Positions 47,596 to 53,273 of a stretch of 64,000 bases of DNA are shown in pieces. Origin of the DNA: Chthonomonadales bacterium (GTDB lineage: Bacteria; Armatimonadota; Chthonomonadetes; Chthonomonadales; CAJBBX01); assembly GCA_020849275.1 (NCBI GenBank), contig JADLGO010000064.1, positions 6,289 to 70,288 of the forward strand, in the 5' to 3' direction. The notes beneath the pieces are model-generated. The model had not been told where the DNA came from and did not search any database. It saw nothing but the letters and a program-made list of their open reading frames with translations. The stretch's first letter is position 1. Each line of letters opens with the position of its first letter. Both the position numbers and the translations under genes were made by a program.

Positions 47596-48657
47596 CTACC
47601 CGCCGGCAGGCCACCGCCTGCGTGCCACCCGGCACCCGAGCCACAGCCGGTGGAGCAGCCCGGAGAACACGAGGGCCCACACCAGCAACGCAATACACGC
47701 GAAGACGCGCGATAGGGTCGATAGGTACGGGAGCCCGGTCGCCGCGTGCATCTGGAACGTACACGTCGCGTACATCCCCAGCGGGAACGCGATGTCCCAG
47801 TAATCCGGGCCGTAGCGGACGGGATAGCCCCGCCAGAGGTGTCGCCATGCCTCCAGGGCCACGAGGAGCGGGATCCACCAGGTGCACAGGACCCAGAAGA
47901 GCAGCGTGTAGCCGTCCAGGAACGGCAGTATGCGCTGCAGGAACGGCCAGCGGGCGGCGTTCTGGATGAGCGTGGCCCCTGACAGCGTGGTGATGGCGAT
48001 CGCGCCCATGTTGATCCAATAGGGCGGCGTGAACTCGCGCGGGGTCAGTGGGAAGAAGGCAAGCCGGTAGAAGATGAGCGAGATCAGCAGCAGATAGAGC
48101 GCGCTCCCCAGCAGGAACAGGGCCAGCGAGAGGAAGATCAGCCCCGGCGCTCGTCCCGCCGACTGCCCGGCGACCTGAAGGCCCAGGATGGCGACCGACT
48201 GGGTTGCCACGACGGCGATCAGCCAGGCGCCGTTGAGCCCCTCCTCCAGGTTGGGCTTGATCCGGTCCACGAAGACGGCCACGAGGAACGCGTACGTCAG
48301 CAGGAGCCACAGCGCCCCGCCGAGGAGCCAGAGCGCGAGCCCGGCCCTGGCACTGTGGGCAAGGAGGACGAACTGGCTGCCCACGGTGCAGGTGGCCGCC
48401 ACGGTCGAGAGGAAGCCGGGGCCTCGGGAGTGGCTGCTCAGGTCCGCCAGCAGGTTGGGGAAGAAGCGGGCGAGGCGAACTCCCGTAAGCAGCCACAGGA
48501 CCGCGTAGGCCGCCAGGTTGATAACGAAGAGCACCCACGCGACCGGCATGACGCCCAGCAGGCTGCTCGCGATGGACACGATGCCGGTCGCCATCACGAG
48601 CGCGAAGTAGCCGGGATGCAACTCCTTCGCCGTCTTCAGGAGGGCGTCGCGCAGCAT
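47596..48657 (-). CDS. TehA / tellurite-resistance-dicarboxylate (TDT, SLAC1-like) family anion transporter
   Basis: About 10 TM helices. N-terminus LHPGYFALVMATGIVSIAS and PPYWINMGAIAITTLSG, typical of the TDT family. Confidence 0.75.
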   Translation of the reverse strand: MLRDALLKTAKELHPGYFALVMATGIVSIASSLLGVMPVAWVLFVINLAAYAVLWLLTGVRLARFFPNLLADLSSHSRGPGFLSTVAATCTVGSQFVLLAHSARAGLALWLLGGALWLLLTYAFLVAVFVDRIKPNLEEGLNGAWLIAVVATQSVAILGLQVAGQSAGRAPGLIFLSLALFLLGSALYLLLISLIFYRLAFFPLTPREFTPPYWINMGAIAITTLSGATLIQNAARWPFLQRILPFLDGYTLLFWVLCTWWIPLLVALEAWRHLWRGYPVRYGPDYWDIAFPLGMYATCTFQMHAATGLPYLSTLSRVFACIALLVWALVFSGLLHRLWLGCRVARRRWPAGG

Positions 48658-48690
48658 GATGGCGGATGAGCGCCCTCCTCCGGCGGGCGC

Positions 48691-50292
48691 CTATATGTTC
48701 GCCAGCTCGCCGAAGTACTCACGGTCCTCGTTGTACCCTCCCTCTCCTTCGCCGACGCTCCGGATGGATTCGACCAGCTCGATCGCCCTCACCCACTTGA
48801 CCATCTTGAAGCCAAGCTGGTTCTCCACGCGCAGGCGCACCGGCGCGCCGTGCAGCTTGCCGAGGGGAGCGCGGTTCATCTCGTCGGCCAGCATCGTGAG
48901 CGGGTGGCTGGCGTCACGCAGGGAGAGGCTGTCGTAGAACTCACCTCCCTCGCTGCCCTCGCCGTAGGAGTAGAAGACCACCGCGCGCGCCTCCGGTTTC
49001 GGCCGGGCCCGCTTCAGCACTTCCGCCAGGGGCACCCCGCCCCACTCCGCGATGCCCGACCAGCCCTGGATGCAGTGGTGCAGGGTGATCTGCGTTCTGC
49101 GGGGCATGGCGCGCAGGTCGGCCAGCGACAGCTCCAGCGGCTCCTCCAGCAGACCGAAGACCCGCAGGCGGTAGTCGTCAAACCCTTGCTCCTCCAGTTG
49201 CGTCCACTCACCCGACGTCGGCACCTTGCCGTTGGCCCAGAAGTACGGGGAGATGTCGGCGGGCGCGAACTCGGCCTTTGGCGCCGCCCGGTCCAGCAGC
49301 AGGCTCATCACCGGCGTGACGATGGCCTTCGCCGCGTGCTGGACGGCGCGCGGCCGCTTCCAGGCCAGCCAGTGGGCGGCCGCGTTGACCGCGACCACCG
49401 CGGCGATCCCCACCAACCCCAGCACCCACCCGATCGGAAGCGTGTTGTCGGTGCCCATGACGATGTGGTTCATGTTTCTGGCGAACCCGGTGATGGCCAC
49501 CATCGCCACGTGCGCGATCGTGAAGGCCACGAAGCTGAGCATCACCAGGAAGTGCAGCGAGCGTCCGATCTGGCGGTTGCCCGGCAGCTTGGGGTACCAG
49601 CCGAACCGGTTGGTCAGCGCCGGTGACATCGAGGGACCTGTGAGAATCGCCAGGGGCGCCAGGATGAACACCACGCCGAAGTAGGTGAGCTGCTGGAGCG
49701 CGTTGTAGCGAAAGAACCCGTTGGGCTCTGTAGGCAGATGGAACGTCGCGTAGTGCACGAAGACGGCCCAGGCGTCGGGCACGATGCTCCAGGAGACGGG
49801 CGTCAGCCGTCGCCACTGGCTGCCGCTGAGCAGCAGGACCACGAAAACAACGCCGTTGACCACCCAGAACAGCACGCTGAGGAAGTGCCAGTGGCGCGCC
49901 ATGCCGATCGTGTGGCGTCCCCCCGGCAGGCCGATCCAGGGCGAGAGGGCGAGGGAATCGTCCTTGGCCGTCCACACGCGGTCGCGCGGCACCACCACGG
50001 GCGTCAGGCGAAGCCACTCCGTGCCGGGCGTGCAGTGCAGGTTCCAGTAGAGCCGGGGGTGGTCCATCAGGACCTGCGCGCCGCTGCGGATGAGCAGGAC
50101 CAGGAACAGGAAGTTGACGTAGTGCGTGATCCGCAGCCAGGCTGGAAACCCCTGGGGCGCGCCGACCGGAGCCGGCTGCGCGCCGGGCGGGATGGCCGGC
50201 AGCCCGAACACCGCCCACTGGAAGTAGGCTCCGGCCACCGCCAGCAGCACCGGCGCGACGAACACCAGCAGCGTTCTGGACTGAACTCGCAT
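48691..50292 (-). CDS. Fusion protein: b-type cytochrome membrane domain + sulfite-oxidase-family (YedY/MsrP-like) molybdopterin oxidoreductase domain
   Basis: N-terminal about 330 aa has TM helices carrying conserved His (RITHYVNF, ARHWHFLSVLFW, SLHFLVMLSFVAFTIAHV). The C-terminal about 190 aa has ITLHHCIQGWSGIAEWGGVPL (Mo-ligand Cys context) and LGFKMVKWV. The ATG lies 3 nt after the nuoN stop. Confidence 0.75.
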   Translation of the reverse strand: MRVQSRTLLVFVAPVLLAVAGAYFQWAVFGLPAIPPGAQPAPVGAPQGFPAWLRITHYVNFLFLVLLIRSGAQVLMDHPRLYWNLHCTPGTEWLRLTPVVVPRDRVWTAKDDSLALSPWIGLPGGRHTIGMARHWHFLSVLFWVVNGVVFVVLLLSGSQWRRLTPVSWSIVPDAWAVFVHYATFHLPTEPNGFFRYNALQQLTYFGVVFILAPLAILTGPSMSPALTNRFGWYPKLPGNRQIGRSLHFLVMLSFVAFTIAHVAMVAITGFARNMNHIVMGTDNTLPIGWVLGLVGIAAVVAVNAAAHWLAWKRPRAVQHAAKAIVTPVMSLLLDRAAPKAEFAPADISPYFWANGKVPTSGEWTQLEEQGFDDYRLRVFGLLEEPLELSLADLRAMPRRTQITLHHCIQGWSGIAEWGGVPLAEVLKRARPKPEARAVVFYSYGEGSEGGEFYDSLSLRDASHPLTMLADEMNRAPLGKLHGAPVRLRVENQLGFKMVKWVRAIELVESIRSVGEGEGGYNEDREYFGELANI

Positions 50293-50295
50293 AGC

Positions 50296-51738
50296 TTACA
50301 CCCCGATGCACGAACGGATGAGGGCGATGAGCGGCGACGGGTAGACGCCCAGCCACACCAGCAGCAACGCGAGCGCCGCCAGCGCGATGGCGCCGGGCAT
50401 CGCCATCGCCGGCGCGGGAGGTCGAGCATCGAGGGCCTGCTCCGGGTCGCTGTAGACCGCAACCACGATGCGCAGGTAGTAGAACAGGCCGATGACGCTC
50501 GTCACCACCAGCACCAGAATGAGCCACCACAGCGCCACGCCCGCCCCGGACGCGACCAGGTAGAACTTGCCGATGAACCCGGCCGTCAGCGGGATGCCGG
50601 CGAGCGAGAGCAGCATCCCGGTCAGGACCACGGCCAGCCACGGCCGGCGCGCGAACAGGCCGCGGAGGTCCTCCATTCGGTCCGCGTCGCGCTCACCGTC
50701 CGACAGCACGGCGATCACCCCGAAGGCGCCGAGCATGGTGACGAAGTAGGCGGCCAGGTAGAAGGTGGCGGCCGTGATGGCCAGCGCCCCGCCGGCCAGC
50801 GGCGCAACCAGCAGGTAGCCGAGGTGCGCGACGGACGAGTAGGCCAGGATGCGCTTGACGTTGTCTTGCAGCAGCGCGAGCAGGTTCCCCATCACCATCG
50901 AGGCGACCGCCAGGATGGCGAACACGGTGAAGAGCGCCCCGTGACCCTCGTGGATTCCGATGCCCATGTAGAGGCGCAGGAGCACGGCGAACACGCTACC
51001 CTTGGAGACGGTCGCCACGAACGCGCCCGTCGGAGCCGGGGCGCCCTCGTAGACGTCGGGAATCCAGAGGTGGAACGGCGCCACCGCCAGCTTGTAGCCA
51101 ATACCGATCACCAGCATCCCGATGCCGGTCAGCAGCAGAAGCGCATCGGGGCCGGCGGCGCGGCCCACCGCGCTCGCCAGCGCCGCGATCTCCATCGTCC
51201 CCGCGGCGGCGTAGACCAGCGCCATGCCGAACAGGAGGAACGCCGCCGAGGCGGCGGCCAGCACCAGGTACTTCAGGCCCGCCTCCGCGCTGCGCCGGCT
51301 CGCGCGGGGAAAGGCGATCAGCGCGTACAGCGAGACGCTCAGCACCTCCAGGCTCAGGAAGAACGAGGCGAGATGCGCGCTCGCGGCAAGCCCGGCCGAG
51401 CCCAGCGTCGCCAGGAGCAGGAGCACGTAGAACTCCTCGCGTTGGCCCGCTTGGCGCTCGAGGTACGTCCAGGAGAGCGCTGCCACCAGCAGCGCCGCCG
51501 CCAGGATCAGGCCGATGTAGAGGAGGGCGAACCCGTCGAGGACGAAGAGCGGCGTGACCTGGCGGGCTCGCGCGCCGGCGGACACGGGCAGCATCGCGAA
51601 CGAGGCGGTCAGCCCGGCCAGCGTCAGCGACGCGGTCAGCACGTGGCTGCGGTGAAGCCCGATCGCCAGCAGCACCAACACGACGGCGCCGGCCAGCACC
51701 AGCAGCGGCAGTAGAGCGATGGCGGCCTGCCCGGTCAC
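50296..51738 (-). CDS. nuoN: NADH-quinone oxidoreductase subunit N
   Basis: Track ORF trimmed to the GTG at 51736-51738, overlapping the nuoM stop (GTGA). VTGQAAIALLPLLVLAG... resembles E. coli NuoN. Confidence 0.9.
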   Translation of the reverse strand: MTGQAAIALLPLLVLAGAVVLVLLAIGLHRSHVLTASLTLAGLTASFAMLPVSAGARARQVTPLFVLDGFALLYIGLILAAALLVAALSWTYLERQAGQREEFYVLLLLATLGSAGLAASAHLASFFLSLEVLSVSLYALIAFPRASRRSAEAGLKYLVLAAASAAFLLFGMALVYAAAGTMEIAALASAVGRAAGPDALLLLTGIGMLVIGIGYKLAVAPFHLWIPDVYEGAPAPTGAFVATVSKGSVFAVLLRLYMGIGIHEGHGALFTVFAILAVASMVMGNLLALLQDNVKRILAYSSVAHLGYLLVAPLAGGALAITAATFYLAAYFVTMLGAFGVIAVLSDGERDADRMEDLRGLFARRPWLAVVLTGMLLSLAGIPLTAGFIGKFYLVASGAGVALWWLILVLVVTSVIGLFYYLRIVVAVYSDPEQALDARPPAPAMAMPGAIALAALALLLVWLGVYPSPLIALIRSCIGV

Positions 51739-53273
51739 CGGGAATCCCCCGAGCGCGCGGCCGGCGCCGCGCGCGCCACGGCCGGCGTGGATGGGCTGCC
51801 CGCGACCCGGCGCAGGCCGCCGATCGACTGCCGAAAGGTGTCCATGACGGGTTGAGGGTAGAGCCCCAGCCACAGGATCACCACCGTCAGCGCCGCGATC
51901 ACCGCCACCTCGCGAGCGTTGAGGTCCGGCACGCGCCAGTCGTGGTCGTTGGGGCCCTGGAAGACACGTTGCACCATCCAGAGCGCGTAGACCGTCGAGG
52001 TGATCAGGCCGAGCGAGGCGATGATGGCCGCTGGCGGACTGACCTGGTAGGTCCCCAGCAGCACCAGGAACTCACCGAGGAAGTTGCCCAGGCCCGGCAG
52101 CCCCATGGAGGCCAGCGCGAAGAGCATCGTGGCGGCGCCCATGCGCGGCGCGGTCTGCCAGAGGCCCTGCATTCGGCCCATGTCGCGCGTGTGCGTGCGC
52201 TCCTGGAGCGCGCCCACCAGAATGAAGAGGGCGCCCGTGCTGACGCCGTGGCAGAGGATCTGCAGCATCACGCCTTGCAGCGCCAACTCGTTGCCGACGA
52301 AGGCGCCGAGAAGGACGAACCCCATGTGGCTCACGCTCGTGTAGGCCACCAGGCGTTTGAGGTCGGTCTGTCCGAAGGCCAGCAGCGCGCCATACAGGAC
52401 GCTCGCGACGCCGAGGGCCATCGCCACCGGCGCCCACCACGCGGCCGCCGTGGGGAAGAGCGGGATGGCGAAGCGCAGCAGCCCATAGGCCCCCGTCTTC
52501 AGCATGAGGCCGGCCAGCACCACGCTGCCCGCCGTCGGCGCCTCCGTGTGGGCGTCAGGCAGCCACGTGTGCACGGGCACCGCGGGCAGCTTGACGGCGA
52601 ACGCCGCGAAGAAACCCAGCATTAGCCAGACGGCCAGGGTGGGCGACATGCGCGTGCCCATCAGCTCGGCCAGCTCGAACGTGTAGATGCCGGTCTGGCT
52701 CGCGTGCGCAAAGTAGAGCCCCAGGATGGCGACCAGCATGAGCAGGCCGCTCAACTGGGTGAACAGGAAGAACTTGGCGGCCGCGTACACCCGGCGCTCG
52801 TGCCCCCAGATCGCGATCAGAAGGTACATGGGGACGAGCATCATCTCCCAGAAGAAGTAGAACAGGAACAGGTCCTGCGCCAGGAACACGCCGGTGACCC
52901 CGGCCAGCACCCACAGCAGGTTGAAGTGGAAGAAGCCGACCCGCTCGCGGATGTCCGTCCACGAGGCCGCCACCGACAGGACGCCCAGGAAGCCCGTGAG
53001 GAGCACCAGGAGCAGACTCAGGCCGTCGATCGCCAGGTGGAAGCGGATGCCGAGGTCGGGGATCCACGGCGCGTTCAGCGCCGCCATCCAGTCCGCGCGA
53101 TCGGCGAGCACCGGCTGCCCGGCGTGCCCCGCCCACAGCGCCAGCGCGAGCAGCAGCTCGGCGGCCGTCGCCGCGAGCGCGATCCAGCGCGACCAGGTCG
53201 AGCTCCAGCGGCCCGCGATCCAGGCCAGGATGCCGCCCACTGTCGGGGCGACCAGCAGCCATACCAGCATCAT
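51735..53273 (-). CDS. nuoM: NADH-quinone oxidoreductase subunit M
   Basis: Trimmed to the ATG at 53271-53273 (ATGA overlap with nuoL). MMLVWLLVAP...IRFHLAIDGLSLLLVLLTGFLGVL...FLFYFFWEMMLVPMYLLIAIWGH, close to E. coli NuoM. Confidence 0.95.
   Translation of the reverse strand: MMLVWLLVAPTVGGILAWIAGRWSSTWSRWIALAATAAELLLALALWAGHAGQPVLADRADWMAALNAPWIPDLGIRFHLAIDGLSLLLVLLTGFLGVLSVAASWTDIRERVGFFHFNLLWVLAGVTGVFLAQDLFLFYFFWEMMLVPMYLLIAIWGHERRVYAAAKFFLFTQLSGLLMLVAILGLYFAHASQTGIYTFELAELMGTRMSPTLAVWLMLGFFAAFAVKLPAVPVHTWLPDAHTEAPTAGSVVLAGLMLKTGAYGLLRFAIPLFPTAAAWWAPVAMALGVASVLYGALLAFGQTDLKRLVAYTSVSHMGFVLLGAFVGNELALQGVMLQILCHGVSTGALFILVGALQERTHTRDMGRMQGLWQTAPRMGAATMLFALASMGLPGLGNFLGEFLVLLGTYQVSPPAAIIASLGLITSTVYALWMVQRVFQGPNDHDWRVPDLNAREVAVIAALTVVILWLGLYPQPVMDTFRQSIGGLRRVAGSPSTPAVARAAPAARSGDSR

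Follow-up and report, generated by a model that had tools for sequence, protein, structure and literature searches.

Gene content and junctions of the locus

We analyzed a 64,000-nt stretch of contig JADLGO010000064.1 from a Chthonomonadales bacterium (the window), in which a cluster of nuo genes for respiratory Complex I is followed on the minus strand by a gene for a fusion of a membrane cytochrome b with a molybdopterin-type oxidoreductase domain, and then by a gene for a protein of the TDT family of anion transporters and channels (region 47596-51873; Table 1). Our analysis suggests that the enzyme family to which the fusion protein belongs, which counts thousands of members among bacteria of many phyla in soil, peat and wastewater, is more interesting than the position of this copy behind nuo, which matters little on its own because it is confined to one lineage.

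Table 1. Features of the nuo/fusion/TDT locus (coordinates are positions in the window; aa, amino acids).
Feature	Start	End	Strand	Basis
nuo cluster, nuoCD-E-F-G-H-I-J-K-L-M-N	50296	63871	-	NCBIfam cut-offs passed by every subunit
nuoN, 480 aa as called in contig L085 of the same organism	50296	51738	-	TAA stop at 50296-50298
GCT spacer of 3 nt, nuoN stop to fusion ATG	50293	50295	-	Direct reading
Fusion gene, 533 aa, ATG at 50292	48691	50292	-	ORF and Pfam
Fusion residues 1-312, membrane domain with six transmembrane helices predicted	49357	50292	-	Pfam, AlphaFold2
Linker helix (residues 314-334) and YedY-like molybdopterin domain (residues ~340-533) of the fusion	48694	49356	-	PF00174, fold
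TAG stop of the fusion gene	48691	48693	-	Direct reading
Spacer of 33 nt, fusion stop to TDT ATG	48658	48690	-	Direct reading
TDT/SLAC1-family anion transporter or channel, 353 aa	47596	48657	-	PF03595
ORF of 565 aa, convergent to the TDT gene	45794	47491	+	No Pfam match

The nuo cluster is of the E. coli-like type with fused NuoC and NuoD, according to the scores of the NCBIfam models (score/cut-off: NuoCD, 1023/840; NuoE, 211/141; NuoF, 561.6/558.65; NuoG, 590.6/470; NuoH, 506/399; NuoI, 298.9/212; NuoJ, 239.5/157; NuoK, 138.7/101; NuoL, 702/407.5; NuoM, 552.9/263.8; NuoN, 397.5/332.6). The nuoA and nuoB genes would fall past the end of the window. The open reading frame (ORF) of nuoN reaches upstream to 51873.

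The layout of both junctions agrees with the original prediction, made from the sequence alone, which had placed the ATG of the fusion gene 3 nt after the TAA of nuoN and the start of a TehA/TDT-family transporter gene 33 nt after the fusion gene, with no terminator-like structure between the genes. The ATG at 50292 is the start of the fusion gene, as M1 and the residues that follow it are conserved across the family. The 3-nt and 33-nt gaps are operon-like, since nuo itself has intergenic gaps between -4 and +40 nt. Within the final codons of nuoN, 7-12 nt ahead of the fusion ATG, a purine-rich GGGGTG could act as a ribosome-binding site that couples translation of the fusion gene to that of nuoN. 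A Shine-Dalgarno-like GGAGGAGGG is located 15 nt before the ATG of the TDT gene, within a small GC hairpin without a U-tract. A consensus scan for sigma-70-type promoters and intrinsic terminators detected nothing promoter-like or terminator-like in the two gaps, and the RNA folds at both junctions are no more stable than those of shuffled sequence (z = -0.44 for nuoN/fusion and -0.59 for fusion/TDT). In addition, no riboswitch for the molybdenum cofactor (Moco) or other Rfam family was detected in the window at gathering scores. The TDT gene is the last of the co-oriented run, and the gene beyond it is convergent.

Taken together, spacing and gene anatomy suggest that the fusion and TDT genes are likely co-transcribed with nuo by read-through. 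A 211-nt metatranscriptome contig covers positions 50122-50331 across the nuoN/fusion junction at low depth, extending 36 nt into nuoN, and short contigs of the same run, labelled as a metatranscriptome, are 96-99% identical and lie on the TDT, fusion, nuoJ, nuoL and nuoM genes; none of the contigs of that run spans the fusion/TDT gap (48657-48691). Three points weigh against read-through from nuo. The argument for it consists of the spacing and a single low-depth RNA contig, which derives from a strain about 97% identical; the same run also covers the convergent gene, so that carry-over of DNA is possible; and the 3' end of nuoN may contain a promoter of a type outside the sigma-70 scan. The fusion and TDT genes would in that case form a transcription unit of their own, driven from inside the 3' end of nuoN, and their adjacency to nuo would have no consequence for expression. 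Such a unit would fit the short reach of the RNA contig into nuoN, the 297 nt that separate nuoN from a fusion homolog in an acidobacterial locus (L099, see below), and a scan consensus that may not represent the promoter type of the host. However, a 3-nt spacing together with a ribosome-binding-like sequence in the end of nuoN is what translational coupling typically shows, and no promoter-like motif emerged from the scan. We consider a separate transcription unit conceivable, albeit rather unlikely.

It should be noted that the nuoN, fusion and TDT genes share one reading frame and are separated by single stops (TAA-GCT-ATG at the first junction, TAG and 33 nt at the second), for which the chance is 1 in 9. 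In a close relative (L172), the junction from a TDT gene to the fusion gene likewise consists of TAA, 3 nt and ATG. Stop-codon read-through to a NuoN-fusion-TDT polyprotein was rejected, as each protein has its own family-conserved N-terminus and the shared frame has the chance given above. Recent horizontal acquisition was rejected on composition, since the GC content at third codon positions (GC3) of the fusion gene (0.92) and of the TDT gene (0.91) matches that of the neighboring genes.

Domains, relatives and family of the fusion protein

The 533-aa protein had been predicted to join a cytochrome b membrane domain to a YedY-like Moco domain with an HHCIQGWSG motif, and all three elements were identified in our analysis. 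In the Pfam analysis, residues 49-272 match PF01292 (Ni_hydr_CYTB/cytochrome b561) at 37.1 bits (cut-off 30.1), and residues 371-508 match PF00174 (Oxidored_molyb) at 117.1 bits (cut-off 24). An AlphaFold2 model computed from 104 sequences of two clades (predicted local distance difference test, pLDDT, 83.6; predicted template modeling score, pTM, 0.82) was used instead of one computed from 23 near-identical sequences (pLDDT 55.7). Six transmembrane (TM) helices are predicted by this model (residues 5-29, 51-77, 130-156, 198-222, 240-267 and 287-312), of which helices 2-5 are predicted to form the PF01292 di-heme cytochrome b core. Five histidines (His57, His78, His136, His247 and His261) are invariant in the 104 sequences and are located near the predicted helix ends, which fits the requirement of a membrane-spanning pair of b hemes, and heme binding is predicted. 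The membrane part weakly matches the cytochrome b of E. coli hydrogenase-1 (6g94_A) in a fold search.

The predicted Mo ligand of the catalytic domain is Cys407 (codon 49072-49074), located within the HHCIQGWSG motif and invariant both in the 23 and in the 104 sequences; binding of Mo-molybdopterin is predicted. The closest match among solved proteins is E. coli YedY/MsrP (1xdq; profile E 8.5e-17; fold E 1.8e-12, 31% identity), in which RMRCVEAWS aligns to the HHCIQGWS of the fusion (C-V-E-A-W-S vs. C-I-Q-G-W-S). The AGNRR... stretch that follows the Mo-ligand Cys of plant sulfite oxidase is absent from the fusion in the same alignment. Moreover, the scores of the fusion against models of specific enzymes are all far under their cut-offs (score/cut-off: MsrP equivalog NF003767, 68/207; SorA, 57.7/600; SoxC, 42.7/420; SorT, 22/570). 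No dimerization domain was matched in the Pfam scan of the fusion, and the protein ends about 25 residues past the Moco core. Judged from these comparisons, the catalytic domain is YedY-like in type but counts neither as MsrP equivalog nor as sulfite dehydrogenase. Identity as sulfite oxidase, nitrate reductase or MsrP equivalog was rejected on motif and scores.

The E. coli MsrPQ (YedYZ) system shares with the fusion the catalytic fold, the C-x-x-x-W-S motif of the Mo site and the delivery of electrons via a membrane b-type heme protein. In that system, MsrP is a soluble periplasmic protein exported by twin-arginine translocation (Tat), and its partner MsrQ, of the ferric-reductase-domain type, is a protein of its own (PMC5676040, PMC12525009). 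The fusion differs in having a PF01292 heme domain that is covalently fused, no Tat signal and a Mo domain predicted to be cytoplasmic. Its N-terminus lacks a Tat signal and reads MRVQSR, followed by the first TM helix and five more, and no MsrQ-like gene was found beside it in the window. A single polypeptide is also found in the Sco3746-type proteins, in which an N-terminal polytopic domain with conserved histidines as the predicted ligands of two b hemes precedes a C-terminal Moco domain, and which have been regarded by the authors as a fused analog of MsrPQ (Tooke et al., 2017, eLife, PMC5449189). These proteins have five TM domains, with a conserved twin-arginine immediately ahead of the fifth, are inserted by both Sec and Tat, and place the Moco domain outside the cytoplasm (PMC5449189). 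The fusion family is set apart from this published description by its six predicted helices, by the absence of a conserved twin-arginine (RR) before the last one, and by a charge bias that points to a cytoplasmic Moco.

The Moco fold of the fusion is also that of the sulfite-oxidizing enzymes (SorAB, SorT, SoxCD, and plant and animal sulfite oxidase) and of eukaryotic nitrate reductase. Animal sulfite oxidase and nitrate reductase carry heme and Moco domains in one chain, and the enzymes of this group have a dimerization domain. The heme of these enzymes is cytochrome c or soluble b5, in contrast to the membrane di-heme b of the fusion. The PF01292 anchors (HyaC of hydrogenase-1, FdnI, PhsC and CybB) resemble the fusion in having a di-heme b core of four helices through which a catalytic module is linked to quinones, but they are separate subunits with periplasmic catalytic partners, whereas the fusion has an extra helix on each side of the core, is covalently joined to its catalytic domain and is probably inverted. 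NarGHI and SoeABC would be comparable by functional analogy only, having a quinone-linked anchor, a cytoplasmic Mo site and an oxyanion that needs a transporter. They belong to the DMSO-reductase family, with a bis-molybdopterin guanine dinucleotide cofactor and an Fe-S subunit, and have no sequence relationship to the fusion. In sum, the protein is a fused, PF01292-anchored YedY-like enzyme that probably faces inward, and the window copy is an ordinary member of its family.

A word-indexed search returned 5085 clusters of fusion homologs at 90% identity. The best 120 of these 5085 clusters all combine PF00174 with PF01292, are 70-80% identical to the query, and bear the source labels Verrucomicrobiota, Planctomycetota, Acidobacteriota, Armatimonadota and others; their database names are generic ("molybdopterin-dependent oxidoreductase" or hybrids of YedY and thiosulfate-reductase cytochrome b). 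A second clade, with 555-aa proteins and with named members from Acidobacteriota, is about 54% identical to the window fusion. In a 50%-identity library, one full-length 555-aa representative was the top match, and behind it ranked a few deeper full-length forms, of which some are without helix 1. A look-up of the 526-aa version of the window's own protein found no record. It should be noted that the closest NuoN to that of this organism is 64% identical, compared with 70-80% for the fusion across phyla, which points to very strong constraint on the fusion, to its repeated horizontal transfer, or to both. On these comparisons, the fusion appears unusually conserved, and its architecture is the standard one of a large family rather than the product of a local event. 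Our literature search found no publication on the PF01292::PF00174 family or on a characterized member of it, the Sco3746 paper being the only relevant one, and the literature on DUF488, a recurrent neighbor (see below), was uninformative.

In four contigs of the same organism from other metagenomes (L083, L084, L086 and L088), the assemblies, which are independent, break at a similar point within the fusion gene, leaving its last 128-131 codons. These breaks likely reflect the collision of a conserved sequence with the copies of other organisms in the assembly graph.

Distribution of the nuo and TDT linkages

We surveyed the neighborhood of the fusion gene in 92 other fusion loci, among them 80 species-representative genome loci and the closest fetchable relatives. 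From the side of nuoN, we surveyed the downstream region in 80 metagenome loci that encode the nearest relatives of NuoN; 62 of these loci have at least 700 nt downstream. Neither NuoN nor NuoL was encoded within 6 kb of the fusion in any of the 80 species-representative loci, the linkage was not seen in the closest relatives (L081, L082 and L172-L178), and a same-strand nuoN upstream of the fusion was found in none of the 92 loci. A fusion homolog lies downstream of nuoN in only one of the 62 nuoN loci (L099), after a gap of 297 nt. Within its own lineage the arrangement is stable: several metagenomes from wastewater and sludge have it in the same organism (L085), and it is kept in a strain about 96% identical, with contigs that span both junctions. 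The linkage described in the original prediction therefore survives within one species-level lineage only; by the criterion given with that prediction, absence of the linkage from all relatives, the 3' extension of nuo proposed there is nearly refuted, and it is not a conserved one.

The gene that starts -14 to +124 nt past the nuoN stop in these relatives encodes, depending on the locus, glucose-6-phosphate dehydrogenase (G6PD), SDR, aldehyde dehydrogenase, transketolase, DctP, sulfatase, an FNR-like reductase or acetate kinase. Because so many unrelated genes occupy this position, the 3' flank of nuoN is a variable slot. Accordingly, the comparative data suggest that the nuo linkage is most likely a lineage-specific accident of gene order rather than a conserved addition to the function of Complex I.

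A few loci deserve description. The homolog in L099 (953-6453) belongs to the acidobacterial 555-aa clade, and the gene order is nuoM-nuoN, the 297-nt gap, the fusion homolog and an sdhC-like gene. A relative 91% identical to this homolog, in L169 (7001-10867), is followed by a HAD hydrolase gene and then by a convergent nuoN, so that the two loci have the same neighborhood in opposite orientation; two other relatives have no nuo nearby. In close relatives of the window copy (L082, 9664-11934; L174, 7617-11451), the order on the same strand is fusion-(GH1-like)-SDR-NDH-2. This is found in one lineage only, and NDH-2 linkage as a general feature was rejected on that ground.

These loci bear on the proposal that the module is a true extension of Complex I, in which the fusion would act as a dedicated quinol sink and NADH, Complex I, quinone and the Mo enzyme would form one co-regulated chain. 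Besides the operon-like spacing without a detected terminator, this proposal can point to the gene order of L099, to the relative next to nuo in L169, though convergent, and to NDH-2 behind the fusion in L082 and L174. Yet the two surveys argue strongly in the other direction, with 61 of the 62 nuoN loci lacking the fusion and all 92 fusion loci lacking the upstream nuoN; the same slot is filled by many unrelated genes, L099 and L169 differ in orientation, and the NDH-2 linkage belongs to one lineage. We regard a true Complex I extension as very unlikely.

The second linkage is that between the fusion and the TDT gene. The TDT protein matches PF03595 with 162.6 bits (cut-off 27.9), its residues 13-334 covering profile positions 2-330 of 331. 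It is thus a full-length member of the family of TehA, Mae1, Ssu1 and SLAC1, yet it scores under the cut-off of TIGR00816 (80.7 vs. 237.25 bits). No solved relative was detected by sequence at E<0.01. TDT genes occur near the fusion in two of the 92 other loci, both from the closest relatives and with differing gene order. In L172, whose fusion is 80% identical, the end of the TDT gene lies 3 nt before the fusion ATG, and the TDT protein is 49% identical to that of the window over 85 aa (E 1e-28). In L033, whose fusion is 79% identical, the order is fusion-DUF488-TDT-CLC, and genes for CLC anion channels are found near the fusion in five loci. A pairing that recurs while the gene order is shuffled usually signals functional coupling, and that of fusion and TDT gains support from this, though two cases are few. 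The comparative data thus lend modest support to a functional pairing, against which it must be counted that the adjacency is limited to 2 of 92 loci.

In other phyla, the 80 loci L001-L080 show further recurrent neighbors of the fusion gene, which share its strand in most cases while their order varies. These include a small cupin (29/80, often directly upstream), DUF488 (about 40 loci), an AlkA-like HhH-GPD glycosylase (15-16), transaldolase (13-14), bacterial globins (8-11), an AIF-like flavoprotein (9), a quinol NO reductase (8) and G6PD (7), and at the acidobacterial fusion loci Usp, HSP20, Band 7 and a Crp-family regulator are found in addition. None of these recurrent neighbor genes was found in the window. 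As a whole, they look like a stress or dormancy set and not like sulfur metabolism. In an Isosphaeraceae locus (L008, 4148-6004), NuoG-like Fe-S domains (2Fe-2S, 4Fe-4S and a partial molybdopterin domain), joined to a cupin domain, are encoded by the ORFs immediately upstream of the fusion gene, and the last of these ORFs overlaps the start of the fusion gene. A NuoG-like Fe-S protein as a general partner of the fusion was rejected, being present in this one locus and as a fragment in L013.

The TDT family includes the yeast sulfite efflux pump Ssu1, and the original prediction had on this basis considered the pairing with a sulfite-oxidase-family enzyme functionally coherent. The fusion would then oxidize sulfite, or a similar oxyanion, and pass the electrons to quinone, while the TDT protein would act like Ssu1, the two forming a detoxification pair. 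The sulfite-oxidase fold of the Moco domain agrees with this idea, as do the recurrence of the TDT pairing and the CLC genes, one of which follows TDT in L033. However, the Mo-site motif is of the YedY type and lacks the stretch present in plant sulfite oxidase, the SorA, SoxC and SorT scores are low, the Pfam scan revealed no dimerization domain, and the recurrent neighbors in other phyla are not sulfur-metabolism genes. While the pairing as such is upheld by L172 and L033, its reading in terms of sulfite is weakened by the motif and the scores, and we hold a sulfite detoxification pair to be the least probable of the explanations considered here.

Membrane orientation and proposed function

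The six helices of the model place both termini of the fusion on one face of the membrane. We compared the charges of the two faces, taking the N-terminal face as the N-terminus, the loops 78-129 and 223-239 and the segment after helix 6. Over the 104 sequences, this face carries a mean of 15.4 Lys+Arg, compared with 4.0 on the opposite face, and 101 of the sequences have 2-4 Lys/Arg after the last helix. RR or KR before the last helix (residues 262-290, with the consensus FxRNMNHIV) is missing in 90 of the 104 sequences, and export of the Mo domain by Tat was rejected for lack of a conserved RR at this position. An RR near the N-terminus is found in only 59 of the 104 family members, and the window protein has none. 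Deeper homologs have N-terminal extensions of about 60-70 residues ahead of helix 1. An adjacent transporter makes most sense with a cytoplasmic active site, which further supports an inward-facing Mo domain. From the charge bias, the missing RR, the N-terminal tails and the transporter neighbor, we infer that the Mo domain quite probably faces the cytoplasm.

There are two arguments against this orientation. PF01292 proteins such as HyaC and FdnI have a canonical topology with the N-terminus inside, and if helix 2 of the fusion corresponds to helix 1 of HyaC and FdnI, this topology would put the Moco outside. In addition, the charge-bias argument is not decisive, because in dual Sec-Tat proteins the positive charges after the last helix belong to the export mechanism, where they serve the hand-over from Sec to Tat (PMC5449189). 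A group of homologs of about 500 aa (P0365, P0367-P0369, P0377 and P0383) lacks helix 1 and would have five helices. These proteins have no RR before the last helix and carry RR or RRR after it; a C-terminus inside would put their N-terminus outside.

Both arguments enter into an alternative in which the fusion is a periplasm-facing repair enzyme or reductase like MsrP, with a fused PF01292 cytochrome b in place of MsrQ and with Sec plus Tat insertion like that of the Sco3746 type. In favor of this alternative, no solved protein is closer than YedY/MsrP; the docking face would lie outside under the canonical topology of PF01292, and the Lys/Arg residues after the last helix, present in nearly all sequences, are described as a hallmark of the Sec-to-Tat hand-over (PMC5449189). 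It is at odds with the lack of RR or KR before the last helix in most of the family, with the even number of predicted helices, with the strong charge bias and with the long charged N-terminal tails of divergent homologs. Furthermore, the score against the MsrP model is about a third of its cut-off, and the transporter and the cytoplasmic-type neighbors (DUF488, cupin, AlkA and the pentose-phosphate enzymes) fit a cytoplasmic site better. A periplasmic MsrP-like enzyme is, in our view, unlikely.

The explanation that we favor, and hold to be somewhat probable, is that the variable 3' flank of nuo here holds a two-gene module, consisting of a quinol-linked heme b-molybdenum reductase and a TDT anion transporter, that is expressed by read-through from nuo. 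The six-helix domain would hold two b hemes, with the invariant His ligands near both membrane faces, and would exchange electrons with the quinone pool. From the hemes, electrons would pass to the YedY-type Mo-molybdopterin center with Cys407 as ligand. This center would face the cytoplasm and reduce an S- or N-oxide or an oxyanion, which we propose as the candidate class of substrates, and the TDT protein would import an anionic substrate or export the product. Complex I would supply quinol in a general sense only, and the nuo linkage would give the module an expression coupled to respiration.

A wider reading, which we put forward tentatively and consider possible without thinking it probable, is that the fusion proteins form a widespread class of quinone-linked molybdoenzymes with a cytoplasmic site, which would act on an anion moved by TDT or CLC proteins as part of a stress programme, and that this class has here been wired to the expression of Complex I. 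The orientation of the Mo domain would then be opposite to that of MsrP and of the Sco3746-type proteins. A stress programme fits the recurrent neighbors, among them the cupin, DUF488, the AlkA-like glycosylase, the pentose-phosphate enzymes, the quinol NO reductase and the globins. If the Mo domain is truly cytoplasmic and linked to quinone, the family would represent a new way to wire an enzyme of the sulfite-oxidase fold into respiration, and its substrate would be worth finding. The recurrent TDT and CLC partners, together with the stress-type neighbors, provide testable leads on this substrate.

Regarding the rest of the window, the 565-aa ORF convergent to the TDT gene has a host-like GC3 of 0.93, and other metagenome contigs of this organism yield an identical ORF call. 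No tRNA genes were found in the window. The host is a bacterium of wastewater or sludge with 71% GC, and positions 5971-43632 contain mainly genes of the glycan-degradation type and genes of unknown function, including those for heparinase II/III-like, GH42-like, F5/8 type C, GFO/IDH/MocA and DUF6785/DUF6784 proteins and for a beta-eliminating lyase.

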